NCBI GenBank assembly: GCA_965229215.1
Contig: OZ245864.1
Coordinates: 134,360 to 198,359, forward strand
Length of the DNA: 64,000 bases
Direction: 5' to 3'
Source: Tagaea sp.
GTDB lineage: Bacteria > Pseudomonadota > Alphaproteobacteria > CACIAM-22H2
How positions within the stretch are numbered: position 1 is the stretch's first letter; every line of letters begins with the position of its first letter. The translations under genes and the position numbers were made by a program. Of the stretch, positions 4,293-41,829 are shown piece after piece. Below the pieces are notes generated by a model. It saw nothing but the letters and a program-made list of their open reading frames with translations, made no database searches and was not told where the DNA came from.

Positions 4293-6315
<2,023 letters not shown>

Positions 6316-8732: not shown

Positions 8733-9484
8733 CAGTAGGTCGCCCGGCCGCCGGTGATGTCGAACACGCCGCCGGTGGTGAACGAGCATTCGGCCGAGGC
8801 GAGCCACGTCACCATCGAAGCGATCTCCTCGATCTGCACGAAGCGGCCCATCGGGATCTTGCCGAGCATGAAGGCGACGTGGGCCTCGGTCATCTGCTTG
8901 AGGATGTCGGTGTCGGCGACGGCCGGCGTGATGCAGTTGGCGAGCACGCCGGTCTTGGCGAGCTCCTTGCCCAGCGATTTCGTCAGCGCGATGAGGCCGG
9001 CCTTGGCCGAGGAATAGGCCGGCGCGTTCGGGTTGCCTTCCTTGCCGGCGACCGAGGCGATGTTGACGACCCGCCCGTAGCCGCCCTTGATCATGTGCGG
9101 CACGACCGCGCGGCAGCACAGGAACGGGCCGGTCAGGTCGACGTCGATGACCTTCTTCCATTCGGCGACCGGGTATTCCCACGTCGTCGTGTTGGGGCCG
9201 GTGATGCCGGCATTGTTGACGAGGATGTCGATGCCGCCCATCGCGCCGATCGTGGCGTTGGTCGCGGCCGAAACGCTCGCCTCGTCGGCGACGTCGGCGG
9301 GCACGATATGCACGCGCGCACCCGCGGCAAGACGCTTGGCGGCGGCATCCAGTGCCGCCGGATCGCGGTCCCACAGCGTCACGCTGGCGCCCGAGAGGAG
9401 GAAGCGTTCGGCGATGGCGAGGCCGATGCCGCGCGCGCCGCCGGTGATGATTGCGCGCTTGGCCTCGAGATCGATCTTGTTCAT
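8732..9484 (-). CDS. SDR family oxidoreductase (3-oxoacyl-ACP reductase-like)
   Basis: TGGARGIG and YSSAK motifs. ATG 9482-9484 with AGGGAG RBS, 11 nt after the aapM stop. Confidence 0.85.
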   Translation of the reverse strand: MNKIDLEAKRAIITGGARGIGLAIAERFLLSGASVTLWDRDPAALDAAAKRLAAGARVHIVPADVADEASVSAATNATIGAMGGIDILVNNAGITGPNTTTWEYPVAEWKKVIDVDLTGPFLCCRAVVPHMIKGGYGRVVNIASVAGKEGNPNAPAYSSAKAGLIALTKSLGKELAKTGVLANCITPAVADTDILKQMTEAHVAFMLGKIPMGRFVQIEEIASMVTWLASAECSFTTGGVFDITGGRATY

Positions 9485-9495
9485 GGGCAGTCTCC

Positions 9496-10542
9496 CTAGT
9501 GGCGCGTCCCCAGCCCGAGACGCTTTTCGAGGCCCGCACTCCAGCGTGACAGGCCGAAGCAGGCGAACCAGAAAATCAGTCCGGCGAAGACATAGGCTTC
9601 CATCGTCAGGCCGACCCACTTGGGATCGGCGAGCGCAGCATGCACGATGCCGAGGAGATCGAAAAGCGACACGACGAGGACGAGTGTGGTGTTTTTGAGC
9701 AGCGCGATGAACTCGTTGGCAAGCGCCGGCAGCGCCAGGCGCAGCGCCTGCGGCAGCACGATGAACCAGGTCGCTTTCCAGTAGCCGAGGCCCATGGCGG
9801 CGGCAGCCTCGGTCTGGCCCTTGGGCAGCGATTGCAGCCCGCCGCGGATCGCCTCGGCCATGTAGGCCGCGACGCACATGGCGAGGCCCACGACCGCGCG
9901 CACCAGCCGGTCGATGCCCACGCCCGCAGGCAGGATCAGCGGCAGCAGCATCGAGGCGAGGAAGATGACCGCGATGATCGGTACGCCGCGCCAGAATTCG
10001 ATGAACACGACCGACAGCGTGCGGATCAGCGGCAGGCGCGACTGGCGCCCCAGCGCCAGCAGCACGCCCAGCGGGAAGGCGCCGATCCCGGCATAGACGG
10101 CCATGAACACCGTCAGCATCAGGCCGCCCCATTCGCGCGTCTCGACCACCGGCAGCGGCCCGCCGCCCAGCAGCAGCCACAGGCCGAGCGGCGGGAAGAC
10201 GACGAGCGTGAGGAAGCCGGAGACCGTCTTGTACGGCGCCCCGTTCCACAGGAACGGCACGACGAAGGCGACCAGCAAGGTGGCCGCGAGGTCGATCCGC
10301 CATGTCTGGGCGGGCGGGTAGAGCCCGTACATGAACTGGCCGAAGCGCACGCGGATGAATACCCAGCACGCGCCGCCGGCCGCGCAATCCGTACGGTCGG
10401 CGCCGTTCCATGTCGCCTTCAGCAGCGCCCATTCGACCAGCGGCGGCACGTAATGGACCAGCAGCGCCGCGCACGCGAGCGTGACGGCCGCATCCAGCCA
10501 CGTGGCGAACAGGTTGGTGCGGACCCAGTCCAGCGCCTTCAT
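9496..10542 (-). CDS. aapM: polar amino acid ABC transporter permease (AapM-like)
   Basis: 348-aa permease with an EAA loop (GQTEAAAAMGL). ATGA overlap with the aapQ stop. Confidence 0.85.
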   Translation of the reverse strand: MKALDWVRTNLFATWLDAAVTLACAALLVHYVPPLVEWALLKATWNGADRTDCAAGGACWVFIRVRFGQFMYGLYPPAQTWRIDLAATLLVAFVVPFLWNGAPYKTVSGFLTLVVFPPLGLWLLLGGGPLPVVETREWGGLMLTVFMAVYAGIGAFPLGVLLALGRQSRLPLIRTLSVVFIEFWRGVPIIAVIFLASMLLPLILPAGVGIDRLVRAVVGLAMCVAAYMAEAIRGGLQSLPKGQTEAAAAMGLGYWKATWFIVLPQALRLALPALANEFIALLKNTTLVLVVSLFDLLGIVHAALADPKWVGLTMEAYVFAGLIFWFACFGLSRWSAGLEKRLGLGTRH

Positions 10543-11713: not shown

Positions 11714-12745
11714 TCACTGGAACGGCGGCGTGAAGAGCAGGCCGCCCTTCGTCCAGAGCTGGTTGGGCCCGCGCGGCAGCTTGAGGGGCGAACCCATGCC
11801 GACCGTGCGCTCGTAGCTTTCGGCGTAGTTCCCGACCTGCTTGATCGCCTGGTACATCCAGTCGTTCGACAGGCCGAGCATCGCGCCGAAATTGCCTTCC
11901 GCACCCAGCAGGCGGCGGACTTCCGGATTGGCGGAAGACGCCTTCATCTGGTCGACGTTCTTCGACGTGACGCCGAGGTTTTCGGCGGCGATCAGGCCGT
12001 TGAGGACCCAGCGCACGACCGCCTGGAAGCGTTCGTCGCCGTAGCGCGTCGTCGGGCCCTGCGGATCGTTCGAGATCAGCTCGGTCAGGATGACGTTATC
12101 GTCGGGTGACTTCAGCTTGATGCGCTGGCCGGCGAGGGCGCCGAAACCGGCGGTGTAGGCGTCGCAACGCTCGGCGTCGTAGGCCGCGATGGCGTCGTCG
12201 TTCTTCTGGAAGTTGACGATCGTCACCTTCTTCTTGCGCTCGGCGAACCAGTCGGTCGCCTGCTTCTCTTCCGACGAGCCGGCCGCGACGCAGATCGTGG
12301 CGCCGTCCATCTGGTCGGGCTTGGTGATGCCGGCCTTCTTGCGCACGACGAAGGTCTGGCCTTCGTAGAAGTTGATGCCCTGGAAGTTCACGCCCAGCGA
12401 GGCGTTGCGCGAGAAGGTGATCGTCGTGTTGCGCGACAGCAGATCGACCTGGCCCGACTGCAGGATCGGCCAGCGCTGCTGGACCGACGTCGGGGTGAAC
12501 TTGACCTTGTTCGCGTCGCCCAGGATCGCGGCGGCCAGCGCCTTGCAGTAGTCGACGTCAATTCCCGTCCACTCGCCCTTGTCGTTGGCGAAGGAGAAGC
12601 CGGGCAGGCCGAGATGGACGCCGCACTCCAGATGGCCGCGGGCCTTGATGGCGTCGAGCGTCGGGCTCGGCGTCAGCGTCTGGGCCTGCGCGCTAAAGGA
12701 GATGGTCAAGGCGGCAAAGGCCGCCGCCAGAATTCCGGTTTTCAT
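11714..12745 (-). CDS. aapJ: general L-amino acid ABC transporter substrate-binding protein (AapJ-like)
   Basis: Start at MKTGILAAAFAALTISFSAQAQ signal peptide (ATG 12743-12745, AGGGGG RBS). Family-3 periplasmic binding protein. Confidence 0.85.
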   Translation of the reverse strand: MKTGILAAAFAALTISFSAQAQTLTPSPTLDAIKARGHLECGVHLGLPGFSFANDKGEWTGIDVDYCKALAAAILGDANKVKFTPTSVQQRWPILQSGQVDLLSRNTTITFSRNASLGVNFQGINFYEGQTFVVRKKAGITKPDQMDGATICVAAGSSEEKQATDWFAERKKKVTIVNFQKNDDAIAAYDAERCDAYTAGFGALAGQRIKLKSPDDNVILTELISNDPQGPTTRYGDERFQAVVRWVLNGLIAAENLGVTSKNVDQMKASSANPEVRRLLGAEGNFGAMLGLSNDWMYQAIKQVGNYAESYERTVGMGSPLKLPRGPNQLWTKGGLLFTPPFQ

Positions 12746-33433: not shown

Positions 33434-33721
33434 ATGAGCGAACCGGACCGCAAGCCCGCGAACCGCCTGGCCGTCTTCGCGGTGGGCACCATGGGATGGG
33501 TGGTCGGCACGCTGTACGCGTGGCTGAACAGCCCGCTCTACCAGCATTGCCAGACGCTGTTTCCCGGCAGGTCGCTCGAATGCCGGCGTGCGCTCTATGG
33601 CTGGATCCCGCGCTTCGCGCTCTACTGGCCTTGGCCGATCCTCGGCGCGCTGGCCTTCGCCACCGTCTTCGTCCTCGCCATGCGGCTGCGCCGCGCGACG
33701 CGGGGAGATGGTGCCGGGTGA
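33434..33721 (+). CDS. hypothetical small membrane protein
   Basis: 95-aa ORF whose last codons and stop lie inside the tRNA-derived attL repeat. Confidence 0.35.
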   Translation: MSEPDRKPANRLAVFAVGTMGWVVGTLYAWLNSPLYQHCQTLFPGRSLECRRALYGWIPRFALYWPWPILGALAFATVFVLAMRLRRATRGDGAG

Positions 33722-33762
33722 GGGGATTGAACCCCCGACCTTCGGTTTACAAAACCGCTGCT
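33708..33762. repeat. attL: 55-bp direct repeat identical to the 3' part of tRNA-Thr (41754..41808)
   Basis: Exact 55-nt identity with the tRNA 3' region (anticodon arm through CCA) at the other end of the island. Confidence 0.85.
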
Positions 33763-33963
33763 ACCCCGTAGCAAGCTGGGGCAACCTGAGCGGATGGCCC
33801 CCAGCCTAGACACTCACAAAGCCTTTTATTTGCAGCATTGGATGCTATTTTCGAGCGATGGGGGGTTGCACGATGGTGCAACCTGAGCGACTCTTAAATC
33901 GTGGCTAGGGCGGTGGCTAGACCGGCTCGCCGACCCGCTAGCCACGGTTCGAGGGGTGCCCCG

Positions 33964-35388
33964 ATGAGCGGTTCAAAGCCTTTCCGCAACGACAAGGCGG
34001 CCAGCGATTGGATCAGGAAGACGCTGCGGAGCATGGCCTCGCCCCAGGTGCGCCATAACGACGGGCACGGTCTCTACCTGCGACTGTCGCTAGGTGGCAC
34101 GGCGACATGGACCCTCAAGCGCGCGGTCAACGGCAAGCCGCAGGAAAAGACCCTTGGGCACTTCCCCTCGGTCGGCGTGAACGCTGCCCGCGCGAAGGCG
34201 GCCGAATGGCGTGCGGCGATCGACGACGGCAAGGATCCGGCCAAGGACGAAGCGGAGGCACACGCGGCCGAGCTGGCAGCGCGGCAGGCCCGCGAAGAAT
34301 CCGAACGGCAGTTGAAGCTGCGGACGTTCAACGCACTGGCCGAGCGGTTCATGCGCGAACACGTACAGCGCAAGCTGCGTGCGTCCATGCATACGGCCTA
34401 TGGCAGCACCTTGGGTCTGTTGCCCGCGACCATCCCGTCACGTAGCAAGCTTGGGAAGCCTCGCCAGCGTCGTTGCTACGTCGCCGCATGGCGCAACAGG
34501 CCCATAAAGGACATCACGAGCGACGACGTCGACAACGTCTTGAACGCCATCTACACCGCGGCCGAAGCGAAGTTCCGAAAGCGTCATCCCGACTATCCGG
34601 CCGACAAGGAAGTACCTGCAGGCGTGGGCGCTGGCGGAAACCGGATACGGGTCTATCTGCACCGCTTTTTCGAGTGGTGCATCAAGGAACGCTGCATCGT
34701 CGTGAACCCAGTTATGCAGACGTCGCCGAAGGCCGCGGAGCGCAAGCTCGACCGTGTCTTGACCGACGCCGAACTGGTCGAAGTCTGGAACGCGATCGAC
34801 GCGAAAGGCGGCCAGTTTAAGACCGTCTTGAAGGTCATGGCGTACACCGGCCAGCGTGAAAACGAGGTCGCGGGCATGCGTCGGTCGGAGTTGACCTTGG
34901 ACGGGCCGGAGCCGTTGTGGTCCATGCCGCCGTCCCGTACGAAGAAAGACCGCGCGCACAACGTCCCGCTGGCGCCGCAAGTCGTCGACCTGTTGCGCGC
35001 CGTCCCGCCGCTCGAGGAAAGCGACCTCGTATTCACGACGACGGGCAAGACGCCCCTGTCTGGGTGGTCGAAGCTGAAAGCGCGTATAGACGCCCAGATT
35101 GCGCGGGCACGCCGGGCGGCAGGGATAGAGGCCGACATGCCGGCTTGGCGCTTCCATGACCTTCGCAGGACCGCCCGCACGGCCTTCGCGCGTGCTGGCG
35201 TCAAGCCAGAGGTCGCGCGCGCCATCGTGAACCACAAGGCCAAGGGTATGGACGCGATCTATGATCGCTTCGAGTACATGCCACAGCGTCGGGCGGCCCT
35301 GACGGACTGGGCGAACGAACTGGACGGCATCATCGCAGGGACGTCGCGGCATAACGTGGTGCAACTGCGGGCCGCTGGCGCGGCATGA
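33964..35388 (+). CDS. int: tyrosine-type site-specific integrase (P4-like, N-terminal arm-binding domain)
   Basis: Catalytic-domain residues in the HDLRRT and VNHKAKGMDAIYDR regions. Adjacent to a partial tRNA copy. Confidence 0.9.
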   Translation: MSGSKPFRNDKAASDWIRKTLRSMASPQVRHNDGHGLYLRLSLGGTATWTLKRAVNGKPQEKTLGHFPSVGVNAARAKAAEWRAAIDDGKDPAKDEAEAHAAELAARQAREESERQLKLRTFNALAERFMREHVQRKLRASMHTAYGSTLGLLPATIPSRSKLGKPRQRRCYVAAWRNRPIKDITSDDVDNVLNAIYTAAEAKFRKRHPDYPADKEVPAGVGAGGNRIRVYLHRFFEWCIKERCIVVNPVMQTSPKAAERKLDRVLTDAELVEVWNAIDAKGGQFKTVLKVMAYTGQRENEVAGMRRSELTLDGPEPLWSMPPSRTKKDRAHNVPLAPQVVDLLRAVPPLEESDLVFTTTGKTPLSGWSKLKARIDAQIARARRAAGIEADMPAWRFHDLRRTARTAFARAGVKPEVARAIVNHKAKGMDAIYDRFEYMPQRRAALTDWANELDGIIAGTSRHNVVQLRAAGAA

Positions 35389-35828: not shown

Positions 35829-35964
35829 AACGAAAGCCCCGACGTGGAGGGACACGCCGGGGCTCGCAAGTTCAGTGTCGAAGAGATAACCGCCCAAACA
35901 CTGTACTCGCGCGCCTGTCGGACTGCAACCTTTCCGCGTCGATCCAGACATGAGGATCGACACC

Positions 35965-37977
35965 ATGCCTAATTCACAATCGACACTCGACGCAGCCTTG
36001 GCACTCGCGCGCCGGGGCTTCTACGTCTTCCCCTGCGTCGTCAAAGGCGAAAGCAAAAAGCCGTCCATCAAGAACTGGAAGACGGAGGCCACGCGCGACG
36101 AGGCGAAGATCCGCACCTGGTGGAACGGTGAATTTGAGCGGTGCGCCGTCGGTATTGCGCACGGCAAATTTGGCGATGGATCTTGGTACCTCGTCACGTT
36201 CGACTGCGACAACAAGCACGGCAAGAACGGCGCCGATCGGCTGTTCGAGCTCGAGCTGGAACATGGCGACCTTCCGCGCACATACACCCAACGGACCCAA
36301 TCGGGCGGCCTTCACTATGTATTCAAGACGCGGCACCCGCTCGATGGGCCTGCGGACTTTCGCCCAGGACTCGACATTCGTGGCGCCCGGAACCTCATCT
36401 ACGCCGCCGGCAGCGTGTGGAACGGCAAGGCGTACACGGTCGAAGTCGACGCCGACGTGGCCGAGGCGCCTGAGTGGGTTGTCGACCTTGTCGGGGTGCG
36501 GTCTGTGGATGAGCCCCGCGTCGGGGCGCCGGAGGGGTTGATTCTCGATACGCCGGAGGCTGTCGCTGCTGCGGTCGCGTACATCAACACCGAGTCCCCG
36601 GAGGGGCAGAGCGGTAACCGCGACGCACCAGCGTTTAAGACGGCCGCAGGATGCAGGGATTTCGCGTTGACGCCTGAGAAGACGCTCGAGTTGATGGATG
36701 AGTATTGGAACGGTGTGCGATGCGTCCCGGCGATGGATCTTGACCGGTTGGAAGAGAAGGTCGCGAACGCCTACAAGAGCGCGAGCTCGACGATCGGAGC
36801 GAAGGCGCCCGCCGCGGCCGAGATGCAGCCCGCAGAAGCGGCCAAAACGACCGAGCCGCCGACGACGCAGGCGCCAGCGGCCGAGCCCTTCGCGATCGTC
36901 GGTTATGACGATCCGATCGACACGCCGGAACCCGAGCCTTTGATCGACGGCATATTGGACAAGGGCGCCGCCGTGTTGCTTTACGGCCTGCCGAAGACGG
37001 GCAAGTCGTTTGTGCTGTTCGAGATGGGGCGGTGCGTTGCCGGGAGCGTCAAATTCGCCGACCGGTACACCGAGCACGGCGCCGTCGTCATCTTCTGTTT
37101 CGAGGGACACCCTGGTCTATCGCGGCGCCGCAAGGCGATGCGGCTGCATCATGGCGACAAGAACTTGCCCCTGTTCATCGTGAAGGCGAGGGGCAGCATA
37201 TTGTCGAAGACAACTCAGGCCCAGATGGCTGCGACCGTGGACACTATCGAAGCCCGATGCGGGCAGCGCGTCGTGTTGGTCGGCGTCGACACCGTTACGG
37301 CTGCAGCACCGGGTGAAGACCAATACGCCCCCGGTCCCGCTGGCAACATCGTCAATGCTGCGAAAGCGGTATCGACCGCCCACGGTCGCACGCTGGTTCT
37401 GGTCCATCACGCAGCTAAGGACAAAGGTAACTCCCCCCTCGGATCGGTTGCCTTCCAAGGCAGCGTCGACGCCGTGCTCAAAGTCGGAAAGGATGGGTCG
37501 TGCGGAAAGCTCGACGGCGAAATGATGCGCGAGCACGCGGCCGGCCAGCCTCTCGAGTTTGAGCTGCGGACGGTCCACGTAGGCACGACGGCCCGAGGGG
37601 TCGCGGTGTCGAGTGCGGTGGCGCTATTCGGACCGGCGACCGATTTCACGAAGGCACTGACACCCAAAGAGGCCGAGGTCGAAGAACTGGTTTTGAAGCT
37701 GGCGGCCGATTGCGTACCCGGCGCGGACGACGAGCACGCCGACATCCGCCTTGCTCAAAAGGACGTCGAGGACGCCTTAGTGAACCGGTCGGACCCGCAC
37801 AAAGACGGGATTCTCCGCGTTAGAGCGGAAACGGCCGCAAGGAACGCGATTAAACATTGGAGGGAGAAACGCGCACAAAGTCACAATGTGCGCGTTGAGA
37901 AGCACGGAAAGGCCAATTTCCTGTGTTTTCACCCGATGGCGTTCATCCGCACAAACGCGGAGAAACGCGCACAATGA
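35965..37977 (+). CDS. bifunctional primase-polymerase (PrimPol N-terminal domain) fused to an AAA_25/RecA-like NTPase domain
   Basis: N-terminal YVFPC...K.P...W PrimPol motif. Walker A GLPKTGKS at about residue 340. GAGGA RBS before ATG 35965. Confidence 0.8.
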   Translation: MPNSQSTLDAALALARRGFYVFPCVVKGESKKPSIKNWKTEATRDEAKIRTWWNGEFERCAVGIAHGKFGDGSWYLVTFDCDNKHGKNGADRLFELELEHGDLPRTYTQRTQSGGLHYVFKTRHPLDGPADFRPGLDIRGARNLIYAAGSVWNGKAYTVEVDADVAEAPEWVVDLVGVRSVDEPRVGAPEGLILDTPEAVAAAVAYINTESPEGQSGNRDAPAFKTAAGCRDFALTPEKTLELMDEYWNGVRCVPAMDLDRLEEKVANAYKSASSTIGAKAPAAAEMQPAEAAKTTEPPTTQAPAAEPFAIVGYDDPIDTPEPEPLIDGILDKGAAVLLYGLPKTGKSFVLFEMGRCVAGSVKFADRYTEHGAVVIFCFEGHPGLSRRRKAMRLHHGDKNLPLFIVKARGSILSKTTQAQMAATVDTIEARCGQRVVLVGVDTVTAAAPGEDQYAPGPAGNIVNAAKAVSTAHGRTLVLVHHAAKDKGNSPLGSVAFQGSVDAVLKVGKDGSCGKLDGEMMREHAAGQPLEFELRTVHVGTTARGVAVSSAVALFGPATDFTKALTPKEAEVEELVLKLAADCVPGADDEHADIRLAQKDVEDALVNRSDPHKDGILRVRAETAARNAIKHWREKRAQSHNVRVEKHGKANFLCFHPMAFIRTNAEKRAQ

Positions 37978-38011
37978 TATTTGCCCCATCTAGCCGGGAT
38001 GCGCACACGCA

Positions 38012-38032
38012 ACACCCCCCTTTAGGGGGTGT
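38012..38032 (+). terminator. GC hairpin immediately after the primase stop (ACACCCCC-CTTTA-GGGGGTGT)
   Basis: 8-bp perfect stem with a 5-nt loop, 35 nt after the primase stop. No T-tract follows. Confidence 0.35.
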
Positions 38033-38149
38033 GCGCGTCGCCCGTAGGGGTTGAAAGATACCGGCCGGACCTTTGACGGCATGATCTTTCGAAAGGGTCC
38101 GAAGGCCCGTTGTGTACGGATGCCGGTTCACCCGTTGAGCGAGGCAGCG

Positions 38150-38323
38150 TTACCGCTGCGTCGGCCCTTTCTTCTCGAACTGTTCCAGCTTCGCGATGAG
38201 ATGACGGAGGCGGGAATTCGGGATGACGATCGCGTCGTCGCCCTGGCGCATGTGGATGATACCGATGTCGGCGTCGTTGCCGACTTGGACGGACGCCCAT
38301 CCCTTTCCGAGGTCCAATTGCAT
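38150..38323 (-). CDS. hypothetical small protein (57 aa)
   Basis: AAAGGGGA RBS 7 nt before ATG 38321-38323. Lies on the opposite strand to the island replication module. Confidence 0.4.
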   Translation of the reverse strand: MQLDLGKGWASVQVGNDADIGIIHMRQGDDAIVIPNSRLRHLIAKLEQFEKKGPTQR

Positions 38324-38807
38324 GTAGATCCCCTTTCCGTTTGGTTTATCGCAACAGCGGTGACGGGAATATCTGGCTTTCACAATCCTCAGTCAAGATT
38401 AAGTTATTGAAACTGTTGCGATTTTCACAACTTTTCTAGTTAAGCCATTAAAAGTATGTAGCAAATAATTCTGCACGCAGGGGGTGCGCTGGCCGTCAGT
38501 TGCCAACCGACTCGCGCGGACACGCGGGAAGAATCCGCGGCGATCGACGGCGACGACCGGCCGACGCACGACACATGACGGCGTCAGGATCCGGCGCACC
38601 GGATGGCGCATCCGCTGCTATCGGCTGCAAGCTGCCGCAACGGCACGCATCCGCCGTCCAGAGCGTGACGACGGCGAAATAGCCACCGCTGTAGCCACGA
38701 ACGCCGGGAAGATGCACCAGCGACGACCGCAGCCGGACCGGCGAGGCGTTGGGGTGTCGACCCCACCCCCGGCCTCGAGCTTGGGGGATTCCGTTTTCGA
38801 GGGGGTA

Positions 38808-38837
38808 CCCCGGGAAATCGGGCCGGGGGGTCTTTTT
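38808..38837 (+). terminator. intrinsic terminator-like hairpin (CCCCGG-loop-CCGGGG followed by TCTTTTT)
   Basis: 6-bp GC stem, 9-nt loop, then a T-tract. Located in a 570-bp region with no convincing ORF. Confidence 0.45.
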
Positions 38838-38951
38838 CATCCACCGGCCGCGGAAGCTACATGAACTGTCTGTCACTTTTGTTTCGATTAACTCAACACA
38901 AGGTTGATTCCAGCTAGCCATGCCACTATTTAGTGTGCGTAAATACTCGAC

Positions 38952-39170
38952 ATGACCAAACCGAACTTCGACTTCACAGGCGCATCGTGCCGCTGGCTCG
39001 AGGATGACCCCCACGACCCGAGCTGCCGGCAATGCCCCAAGGCGCCAGCGGCAGGCCGGCCGTACTGCCCCGAGCATCAGCACCGCGCATATCAGCCGAA
39101 CAGCGCACCCCGGAAACGTGAAGACCTGGACCCTTGGGCCAAGGTCGCCGTCGATGCGGAGGCCGCATGA
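38952..39170 (+). CDS. small Cys-rich (zinc-ribbon-like) hypothetical protein
   Basis: 72-aa protein with C-x9-C-x2-C-x10-C spacing. Its stop forms an ATGA overlap with the next ORF. Confidence 0.45.
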   Translation: MTKPNFDFTGASCRWLEDDPHDPSCRQCPKAPAAGRPYCPEHQHRAYQPNSAPRKREDLDPWAKVAVDAEAA

Positions 39171-39895
39171 GAATCGCGGACATCGTTTCTCGCTTCACGT
39201 CACCCCCGCCCAGCACGGTCGCCATCGCCCAGGCGTCGGGGCAGTCGACCATCAGACTCTCGCTCACAAGGAACTGGAAACTGGCCATGACGATCATCGC
39301 CGAGAAACTCGACACCGCGCACGCCAAGCGGACGGAGCTGGTAGAGGCGCGACGTGCGCTTCTGCTCGACGCCGTACAGGGCGAGCCGGGCGCCGACCCG
39401 AAACTTCGCAAGATCGAAAACGAGATTGCGGATCTGGACCGGAGCGTCGCCCAGCTCAGGGACGCGAATACTCTGGCTCGGGAACGCGACGACGCCGAAC
39501 GAGAAGCCGCCGCCGCGGCCGAATACAAGCGGCTCAAAGCGGAATGGGAACAGCGCAACGCCGACATGCGCCAACTCGCAGAACACGCCGACGCGCTGGC
39601 GAGCAAGGCCGCCGCCGCATTCATCGAACTGGCCGATAAAGCCGAAGCCCAGGCGCGATCGGCGCCCGTCGAGCTTTACGGCTTCCCGGCCGACAGGCCG
39701 CTGGGCCAAGGGCGCACCGCATCAGCCGTGCGGAACGTACTCGCACGGCACGGACTCGATTGGGCGCGTTCCGGCTTTTTCCGCTGGCCCGACCCGCCGC
39801 TCATCGTGGAAGTCATCGACGCCGGCATCACTTGGGCGAAGTACGAAGTCGATCGTATCGAATCTCGCAAGAAAGCGGCGAAGTCGGCCGCCTAA
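39167..39895 (+). CDS. hypothetical coiled-coil protein
   Basis: Translationally coupled downstream of the Cys-rich ORF. Long charged heptad-like segment (KRTELVEARRALL...AEYKRLKAEWEQRNADMRQLAEHADALASKAAAAF). Confidence 0.5.
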   Translation: MRIADIVSRFTSPPPSTVAIAQASGQSTIRLSLTRNWKLAMTIIAEKLDTAHAKRTELVEARRALLLDAVQGEPGADPKLRKIENEIADLDRSVAQLRDANTLARERDDAEREAAAAAEYKRLKAEWEQRNADMRQLAEHADALASKAAAAFIELADKAEAQARSAPVELYGFPADRPLGQGRTASAVRNVLARHGLDWARSGFFRWPDPPLIVEVIDAGITWAKYEVDRIESRKKAAKSAA

Positions 39896-41701: not shown

Positions 41702-41753
41702 TTCGTGGCTAGAGCCGTGGCTAAAGGCACGGTTTCAAAGCCAAATTGAAATT

Positions 41754-41808
41754 ATGGTGCCGGGTGAGGGGATTGAACCCCCGACCTTCGGTTTACAAAA
41801 CCGCTGCT
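41754..41808. repeat. attR: 55-bp repeat (3' part of the intact tRNA-Thr)
   Basis: Identical to 33708..33762. Confidence 0.85.
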
Positions 41809-41829
41809 CTACCGCTGAGCTAACCCGGC
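41755..41829 (-). tRNA. tRNA-Thr (anticodon UGU), CCA encoded
   Basis: Manual cloverleaf: acceptor GCCGGGT/ACCCGGC, D-arm GCTC-AGCGGTA-GAGC, anticodon loop TTTGTAA, T-arm GGGGG-TTCAATC-CCCTC, 3' CCA. Confidence 0.75.

Follow-up and report, generated by a model that had tools for sequence, protein, structure and literature searches.

The 64 kb window analyzed in this study, part of contig OZ245864.1 from Tagaea sp., contains an island of ~8.1 kb that is integrated at a tRNA-Thr gene and encloses a gene-free gap of 628 bp (38324-38951). The island is a P4-like integrative element of the satellite type, and no capsid or terminase genes were recognized in it. An original prediction, made from the nucleotide letters, described a stretch of 570 bp poor in open reading frames (ORFs) at 38384-38950 with a canonical intrinsic terminator and proposed a structured non-coding RNA (ncRNA) there. 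The stretch is indeed free of genes, but its limits are wider: the gap starts at 38324 because gene callers applied to an identical contig start the leftward gene of 57 amino acids at 38323. The observation is thus confirmed, and its interpretation as a structured ncRNA is partly supported: the stretch is non-coding and conserved and a transcript of ~355 nt is plausible, whereas the Rfam search, the folding z-scores, the covariation and the controls do not bear out the structure. Support for a structured RNA is weak, and the most telling feature of the region is a tandem motif that recurs beside both ends of the island.

The island is bounded by a 55 bp perfect direct repeat corresponding to the 3' part of tRNA-Thr(TGT). 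The left copy, the attL core (33708-33762), marks the left island boundary and is 100% identical to the attR core (41755-41808), which lies within the intact tRNA-Thr gene (41755-41829, minus strand), the sole Rfam match of the whole window. Four syntenic islands from other assemblies share a homologous gene-free gap of ~360 bp, namely L003 (GCA_006365015.1; locus L076 is the same contig), L016 (VFQU01000430.1), L086 (VFQU01001462.1) and L087, a short Logan contig, and a contig from the European Nucleotide Archive, L001, carries the same sequence as the window (99.8%). The islands of L003 and L016 are inserted at the same tRNA as that of the window, and L086 lies beside tRNA-Asn/tRNA-Cys. The family is mosaic. 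The integrase of the window is 88% identical to that of L003 and 37% identical to that of L086; between the window and L003 the primases are 42% identical and the proteins of 242 amino acids 54%. L087 matches the window at 92% over the 3' half of the conserved core and is diverged in the 5' half, and L086 shares the flanks of L003 (GcrA-like protein 95% identical) with a core that is only distantly related.

The gene order begins with a P4-type tyrosine integrase gene, int (33964-35388, plus strand), the product of which (474 amino acids) has an N-terminal arm-binding domain; Pfam Arm-DNA-bind_3 and Phage_integrase were matched on the identical L001 gene, and Arm-DNA-bind_3 (PF13356) is present on the integrases of L001, L003 and L086. 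A small ORF after int encodes a putative excisionase resembling the helix-turn-helix (HTH) family HTH_17, a match that is weak and was obtained in the L086 counterpart only (E = 0.0019, below the cut-off). It is followed by a Prim-Pol/AAA_25 replicase (35950-37977) and, divergent from the gap, by the gene of 57 amino acids (38150-38323, minus strand), a candidate regulator called in L001, L003 and L086 that matched no Pfam family above threshold. To the right of the gap, a GcrA C-terminal-like protein of 72 amino acids (38952-39170, plus strand) is encoded by the first gene of a distal operon, joined by an ATGA overlap to the gene of 242 amino acids, after which a few more small genes follow. 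The match of the 72-residue protein to Pfam GcrA (E = 3.6e-5, model positions 107-153 of 155) is below the curated cut-off; the counterparts in L003 and L086 were weakly called GcrA, and these proteins, of 72-75 amino acids, share the Cys/His pattern C..W...C...C.EH. The C-terminal region of GcrA is the part that binds sigma-70, and the gene could therefore encode an RNA-polymerase-directed factor. An iteron-like cluster of five GCGCACA units in both orientations lies at and just past the 3' end of the Prim-Pol gene (37871-38036). Similar clusters are found in L003 (11810-12071, GGCGACA ten times), L016 (~1760-1900) and L086 (~8790-8880), with units that vary by replicase type (GCGCACA, GGCGACA, AGCGCAC and GTGTGCGCGCGCGC), and the cluster is the probable replication origin of the island. 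Inside it, between the convergent replicase and 57-residue genes, the hairpin ACACCCCCC-TTTA-GGGGGTGT (38012-38032) is a possible bidirectional terminator.

The left part of the gap is an AT-rich segment (38324-38480; GC content 0.445) regarded as a candidate divergent promoter/operator; over 38300-38499 the GC content is 0.445, compared with 0.62-0.69 on either side. A consensus promoter scan called promoters on the minus strand only, aimed at the 57-residue gene (TTGACT-17-GATATT at 38396-38368), and none on the plus strand. A plus-strand -35/-10-like pair, TTAAGC (38440-38445) and AATAAT (38464-38469) with an 18 nt spacer, was read by eye ~12 nt ahead of the conserved GGGGTGCG start and was not called by the scan tool. 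A 17 bp imperfect palindrome in the same segment, GTTGCGATTTTCACAAC (38415-38431), is a candidate operator. In L003 and L016 the aligned position is occupied by the exact reverse complement, GTTGTGAAAATCGCAAC; L086 has the related GTTGAGATAATCGCCAC, and the half-site ATCGCAAC is repeated at 38348, with half-sites also near 38378. The palindrome includes an 8/9 match to the DnaA box. At the right end of the gap, a second AT-rich segment with conserved blocks (38845-38951, plus strand) contains a -10-like TAAATA (38940-38945). This hexamer precedes the start codon of the GcrA-like gene (ATG) by 6 nt, and the gene has no Shine-Dalgarno sequence; because of these two features the start may be leaderless, and the segment may be a promoter of this gene's own.

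Between these segments, the GC-rich sequence ends in hairpins with a long closing stem and five T residues (T5), which together form a terminator candidate (38751-38837, plus strand). GGGGTG (38751-38756) pairs with CACCCC (38764-38769); CCCCGG (38808-38813), a 9 nt loop and CCGGGG (38823-38828) are followed by GG and TCTTTTT (38831-38837); and the stem 38765-38773/38821-38829 wraps the inner hairpins. The AT-rich segment, the GC-rich hairpins and the hairpin with T5 are thus all present as described in the original prediction. A terminator-like pattern of canonical form, however, is seen in the window only. The closing stem GACCCC...GGGGTC is followed by T5 in the window, T4 in L086 and ATTT in L003 and is not clear in L016 or L087; the T-run after the hairpin is interrupted in L003 (ATTT) and L016 (CTTCTGCT) and absent in L087; and the 3' hairpin sequences differ among lineages. 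Terminator-like patterns were not enriched (3, compared with 2.7 +/- 1.7 in shuffles). A 24 nt segment of this region, TCGACCCCACCCCCGGCCTCGAGC (38757-38780), is matched exactly at 8558-8581 of L002, a phage contig with a primase 44% identical, where a terS-like gene and the large gene after it are separated by a long perfect hairpin whose 5' arm carries the match.

The GC-rich core of the gap (38481-38775, plus strand) is non-coding and conserved, with ~80% identity to L003 and blocks of 34, 35, 19 and 25 nt that are invariant. Substitutions between the window and L003 fall 22/18/15 by phase, clustered and with no 3-periodicity, a 1 nt indel separates the two, and the ratio of non-synonymous to synonymous divergence (pN/pS) is 0.57-1.26 in all six frames; no conserved protein-coding signal was found in this comparison. 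ORFs overlapping the gap matched no Pfam or PHROG family, gene callers placed no gene in it in any of the four loci covering it, and the ORFs can be regarded as spurious, as had been supposed. A minus-strand frame of 195 amino acids has stops in L003 and L016, and a minus-strand ORF beginning MKKT at the T-run was rejected, since it has stops in L003/L016 and no usable ribosome-binding site. The divergence of the core from L003 is ~0.19, compared with a pS of 0.31 and a pN of 0.06 for the integrase and ~0.28 for the att arms, and for this reason the core is considered constrained, although not dramatically beyond the recombination module.

The original prediction missed a tandem motif in the core that resembles the sites expected in integrase arms and points to a protein-bound DNA element. 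The heptamer TAGCCAC occurs eight times in the window, compared with 1.9 expected, and seven of the eight copies lie within the island; its tandem form with 12 bp spacing, TAGCCAC-N5-TAGCCAC, has three matches in 64 kb (0 expected), all in the island. The mid-core copy, TAGCCACCGCTGTAGCCACGAA (38680-38701, plus strand), is invariant in L003, L016 and L087, and the invariant 19-mer of the core, TAGCCACCGCTGTAGCCAC (38680-38698), is the TAGCCAC tandem. Beside attL, arm-type-like repeats at 33901-33945 comprise TAGCCAC at 33901 and 33913 (minus strand) and at 33939 (plus strand), 19-63 bp upstream of the int ATG (33964), with the tandem itself (33901-33919, minus strand) 45-63 bp upstream. Beside attR, a tandem arm-type-like site (41705-41723, minus strand; TAGCCAC at 41705 and 41717) lies 32 bp from the end of tRNA-Thr. 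The same three-place layout is found in L003 and L016, and in all island types the internal pair runs in the direction contrary to that of the two att-side pairs. Once the attR-side copy is reverse-complemented, it agrees with the core copy at 20 of 22 positions, with unlike flanks, and the three tandem copies are alike only over the 21-22 bp of the two repeat units, in which the 7-mers are perfect and the spacer variable. This confinement of similarity to the repeat units fits protein sites better than RNA-RNA pairing.

The L086 island contains no TAGCCAC at all. Its core tandem is replaced by two copies of CTAGGTGTCGT, matching its own att-side repeats: TAGGTGTC(GT) is found at 4616 and 4628 (minus strand, upstream of int), at 9528 and 9540 (plus strand, core) and at 12459 (minus strand, by the tRNA), and an unbroken stretch of ~23 nt is common to the core and int-side copies. 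Because L086 carries TAGGTGTC instead of TAGCCAC at all three places, the motif has changed in concert at the three. The repeat tracks the type of integrase, TAGCCAC occurring with integrases that are 88% identical and TAGGTGTC with the integrase that is 37% identical, and it does not follow the replicase, the 57-residue gene, the GcrA-like gene or the 242-residue gene. The small HTH ORF of L086 is 29-36% identical to its counterparts and changes in parallel with the integrase, and for this reason either the integrase or the HTH protein may be the binder. In the window, L003, L016 and L086, the repeats have the layout of arm-type sites, lying on both sides of the att core and away from the crossover region.

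Several further resemblances were noted around the att arms. The 9-mer CCGCTGCTA occurs in an invariant core block (38612-38620) and at the inner edge of the att core (33755-33763), as well as at 12539 and 7691 in L003, and in both places GCAAGCTG follows 6-7 nt later; the alignment is not above shuffles. Derivation of the core as a copy of attP was rejected, since the local alignment was not above shuffles and the profile match to the attR arm was carried by the repeat units alone. GCAACCTGAGCG occurs twice in the attL arm (33779-33792 and 33880-33893), between the att core and TAGCCAC, and is a possible second protein site. An extra TAGCCAC at 15793 in L003 and 5610 in L016, ~86 bp past tRNA-Thr and outside the island, may be due to chance or be a trace of an earlier tandem insertion.

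The island family is rare among the sequences searched. Only 12 primase relatives were found at E <= 1e-20 (8000 candidates scored out of 5.8 billion sequences), and the 242-residue protein gave eight matches, three of which were the query sequences themselves. Related primases were found in the phages L002 and L004-L007, from which the core element is absent, and an nhmmer profile of the core matched only L001, L003/L076, L016 and L087, plus the two ends of the core in L086. In a collection of genome contigs, the primase protein gave 22 pattern matches and no relatives and a core 20-mer gave none; in a collection of viral contigs, neither two core blocks nor an alignment of the 242-residue protein gave a match; and a distant blastn search against phages and plasmids yielded no match. 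A metagenome scan with the core 19-mer returned 78 loci, of which only L016 and L076 are true homologues. In 14 other metagenome contigs (L014, L018, L027, L028, L041, L042, L045, L053, L054, L060, L063, L066, L084 and L085), the 19-mer lies in a conserved non-coding stretch of ~330 nt that ends ~150 nt past it in a tRNA-Arg(ACG)-like 3' fragment. The DNA fetched for these 14 contigs contained no tRNA, transfer-messenger RNA (tmRNA), Rfam family or integrase, and they may represent att junctions of other elements using the same repeat.

In the sequences compared, the three-place layout of the motif and its change in concert with the type of integrase are established. The identity of the binding protein, transcription of the region and the direction of any regulatory effect are inferences. 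Our preferred reading, which is tentative and to which we give slightly less than an even chance, is that the stretch is the central control region of the island and that its leader carries an internal copy of the att-arm repeat, bound by a recombination protein. The repeat is most likely an arm-type site of the island integrase, the HTH_17-like putative excisionase being the alternative binder. The control region would consist, in order, of the AT-rich divergent promoter/operator, a GC-rich leader of ~290 bp, the hairpins with a short T-run and the second AT-rich promoter-like segment. The leader is probably transcribed, with termination before the distal operon, and a plus-strand transcript of ~355 nt between the AT-rich promoter-like segment and the hairpins/T-run is plausible. 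The protein that occupies the att arms, through the N-terminal domain of the integrase or as the excisionase, would also bind mid-island, where it could act as a roadblock on the DNA within a transcribed leader, by forming a loop with the int-proximal arm, by using the site as an operator or as a component of a recombination complex. Such binding would couple the state of integration or excision to rightward transcription into the distal operon, and without this input transcripts from the upstream promoter would end at the hairpin/T-run.

A number of points weigh against this reading. We know of no established mechanism by which an integrase regulates through arm-type sites outside attP. The proteins known to act at two kinds of site are recombination directionality factors (RDFs), such as 186 Apl and P4 Vis, which bind att and a distant control region, and RDF sites usually occupy one arm, whereas here the motif is in both. 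The tandem core site lies ~200 bp downstream of the putative promoter and not at it, and five further invariant core blocks (14-35 nt) are not explained by one site of 22 bp. The comparison comprises only ~3 independent lineages, and since the entire left half of L086 (int to core) belongs to another lineage, shared descent may account for some of the concerted change of motif. Nevertheless, the core of each island carries its own att-arm repeat, including that of the far right arm, which is hard to explain without function.

The proposed arrangement has partial precedents. In KplE1, the integrase and the RDF repress int through att-arm sites (PMC2951348), and in ICEMlSymR7A, RdfS binds attP and a promoter elsewhere, the attP having five arm-type sites (PMC11963761). 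The island resembles the systems of KplE1 IntS/TorI, P4 Int and ICEMlSymR7A IntS in having direct repeats that flank a tRNA-derived att core (here 2 + 3) and an integrase with an N-terminal arm-binding domain. As in KplE1 and ICEMlSymR7A, one set of repeats lies between the att core and the start of int, a layout tied to negative autoregulation (PMC2951348; PMC11963761). Unlike KplE1, P4 and ICEMlSymR7A, however, the island has a third tandem copy 3-5 kb from either att site, in a conserved non-coding block, and no description of an internal pair of arm-type sites was found in the literature on arm-type integrase sites (KplE1, ICEMlSymR7A).

P2 Cox serves in excision and also as a repressor (PMC3936717). 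The island is like the systems of P2 Cox (PMC3936717), RdfS (PMC11963761), 186 Apl and P4 Vis in having repeated sites at att and in a control region elsewhere; in those systems a single small DNA-binding protein occupies both kinds of site, linking excision to transcription. It differs from these dual-site RDFs in that the motif is present in both att arms, the internal site is not at a recognizable promoter and the candidate RDF matches HTH_17 weakly. Units of promoter, leader and terminator that need an antiterminator are known in phage-derived clusters of alphaproteobacteria, such as GafYZ at the gene transfer agent (GTA) cluster of Caulobacter (PMC11150451). The gap shares with these units, and with lambda pR'-tR' under Q and with AlpA, the order of a putative promoter, a long leader that is not translated and a candidate terminator before an operon, and read-through would need a factor; it is unlike them in that the T-run of the candidate terminator is not conserved.

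A plus-strand ncRNA gene of ~355 nt (~38476-38837), acting by its structure or by base pairing, is a rather unlikely alternative in our estimate. The int leader and the 3' end of the operon bear reverse complements of the tandem motif and could then be its pairing partners, with complementarity between the core and int-side copies extending over 19-23 nt; the copies are, however, alike in the repeat units only, with perfect 7-mers and a variable spacer, as is typical of protein sites. The order of promoter-like segment, conserved core and hairpins with a T-run is found on the plus strand only, and the next gene, the GcrA-like gene, seems to own a promoter, both of which suit an ncRNA, but the T-run is not conserved. 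A search of Rfam 15 over 37900-39200 at E <= 10 returned only sul1 (16.9 compared with 36.2 bits) and sR30 (12.3 compared with 38), both at chance level, so that the scan suggested with the original prediction identified no family. The minimum free energy z-score on the plus strand is -3.15 (tool) and -3.4 (own run) in the window and -2.1 in L003, compared with -1.8 and -1.25 on the minus strand, but it is -1.3 in L016, -0.1 in L087 and +0.6 in L086, and the excess folding stability is not kept across homologues. Helix P1, in which GGTGCGCTGG (38483-38492) pairs with CCGGCGCACC (38592-38601) on the plus strand, is paired in 39 of 40 cells (8 pairs, 5 sequences) and is the sole helix kept in all five; by our own count from the table, its U.G-type changes suit the plus strand, since the minus strand would have A.C mismatches in their place. 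One G-C to U-A double change was also seen in an inner hairpin (38519/38535). In RNAalifold on the five sequences, the covariation term was unfavourable. The structure beats column shuffles and slid controls, as is expected because it was derived from the same sequences. The decisive control was the same procedure applied to the coding DNA of the 242-residue gene from the same five loci and to the minus strand of the core. Paired cells and compensatory pairs came to 84.7% and 30 in the core, 83-88% and 16-30 in the coding control and 84.8% and 29 on the minus strand, and because these figures are equal there is no evidence for conserved structure beyond background; the covariation proposed as a check across homologous islands thus fails to favor an RNA. 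P4 CI RNA and the P1/P7 C4 antisense RNA offer a likeness in a primase-helicase satellite with a non-coding leader before an operon, from which the island differs in having no Rfam C4 match, internal repeats that are direct and not complementary, and a 12 nt operon complementarity that is absent from L003. This last complementarity, between 38543-38554 in the core and 39144-39155 ahead of the 242-residue gene, was rejected as an antisense interaction because its target is absent from L003. A tmRNA or tRNA-like RNA, an idea arising from the GGGG 5' end and the 19-mer matches beside a tRNA-Arg fragment, was also rejected: ARAGORN and Rfam were negative and the T-arm-like hairpin is lost in L003.

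The tandem-motif evidence serves equally for an accessory recombination site, in which a bivalent integrase would bridge the internal tandem to attL/attR or attP and stimulate or restrain excision, and this we consider improbable. It would resemble phage Mu, in which the internal activation sequence is a recombinase-bound internal site in a control region, additional to the end sites; Mu, however, uses a DDE transposase, and its enhancer and end sites differ in sequence. The opposite orientation of the internal pair in all island types would suit such a role, as would the 9-mer CCGCTGCTA, which the window and L003 have both in the core block and at the inner att-core edge. Against it, the 9-mer and the local alignment are not above shuffles and have no counterpart in L086, the tandem is separated from the att sites by 3.1 and 4.9 kb, the similarity of core and att arms is weak outside the repeat units and tyrosine integrases are not known to use such an enhancer. 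That the stretch is a decaying remnant without function, such as an old attP arm or a pseudogene, or a small unannotated protein gene, is more improbable still. Long open frames on both strands and the strong mosaicism of the family would be in keeping with this, but the core retains blocks of as many as 35 invariant nt and is less diverged than the synonymous sites of int, and across two island types the motif has changed jointly at three places. A protein gene is opposed by a pN/pS of ~1, an indel that shifts the frame and stop codons in the minus-strand frame of L003 and L016. A replication origin or a site for packaging by a helper phage (cos/pac) seems very unlikely indeed. The gap lies ~350-970 bp downstream of the Prim-Pol/helicase gene and has an AT-rich segment, and in a phage with a related primase the counterpart of the exact 24 nt match (38757-38780) belongs to a hairpin just past a terS-like gene; the replicase-specific iteron-like clusters are, however, at the 3' end of the replicase gene (37871-38036) and not in the core, the core does not follow the type of replicase, and the 24 nt match is the arm of a GC-rich hairpin that is not kept in L016 or L087.

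A bolder proposal can also be made that we consider unlikely, though not negligible. The arm-binding domain of the integrase would act on a dedicated internal site, either as a transcription factor or roadblock for the distal operon or as the third partner in a three-site recombination complex, inside a leader of ~360 nt that may itself be a new island-specific RNA. The controls also call for caution: at 65% GC, strong predicted folding together with a hairpin and T-run is poor evidence for a structured RNA, because coding controls gave the same consensus-fold statistics. Small islands with an integrase, a replicase and a few genes of unknown function are common and poorly understood, and this one offers a testable link between recombination and expression. 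If the integrase or its partner binds the core, the autoregulation of int by arm sites would extend to other genes of the island, and a sequence rule for recognizing control regions in such elements would follow, namely the presence of the att-arm repeat elsewhere in the element.

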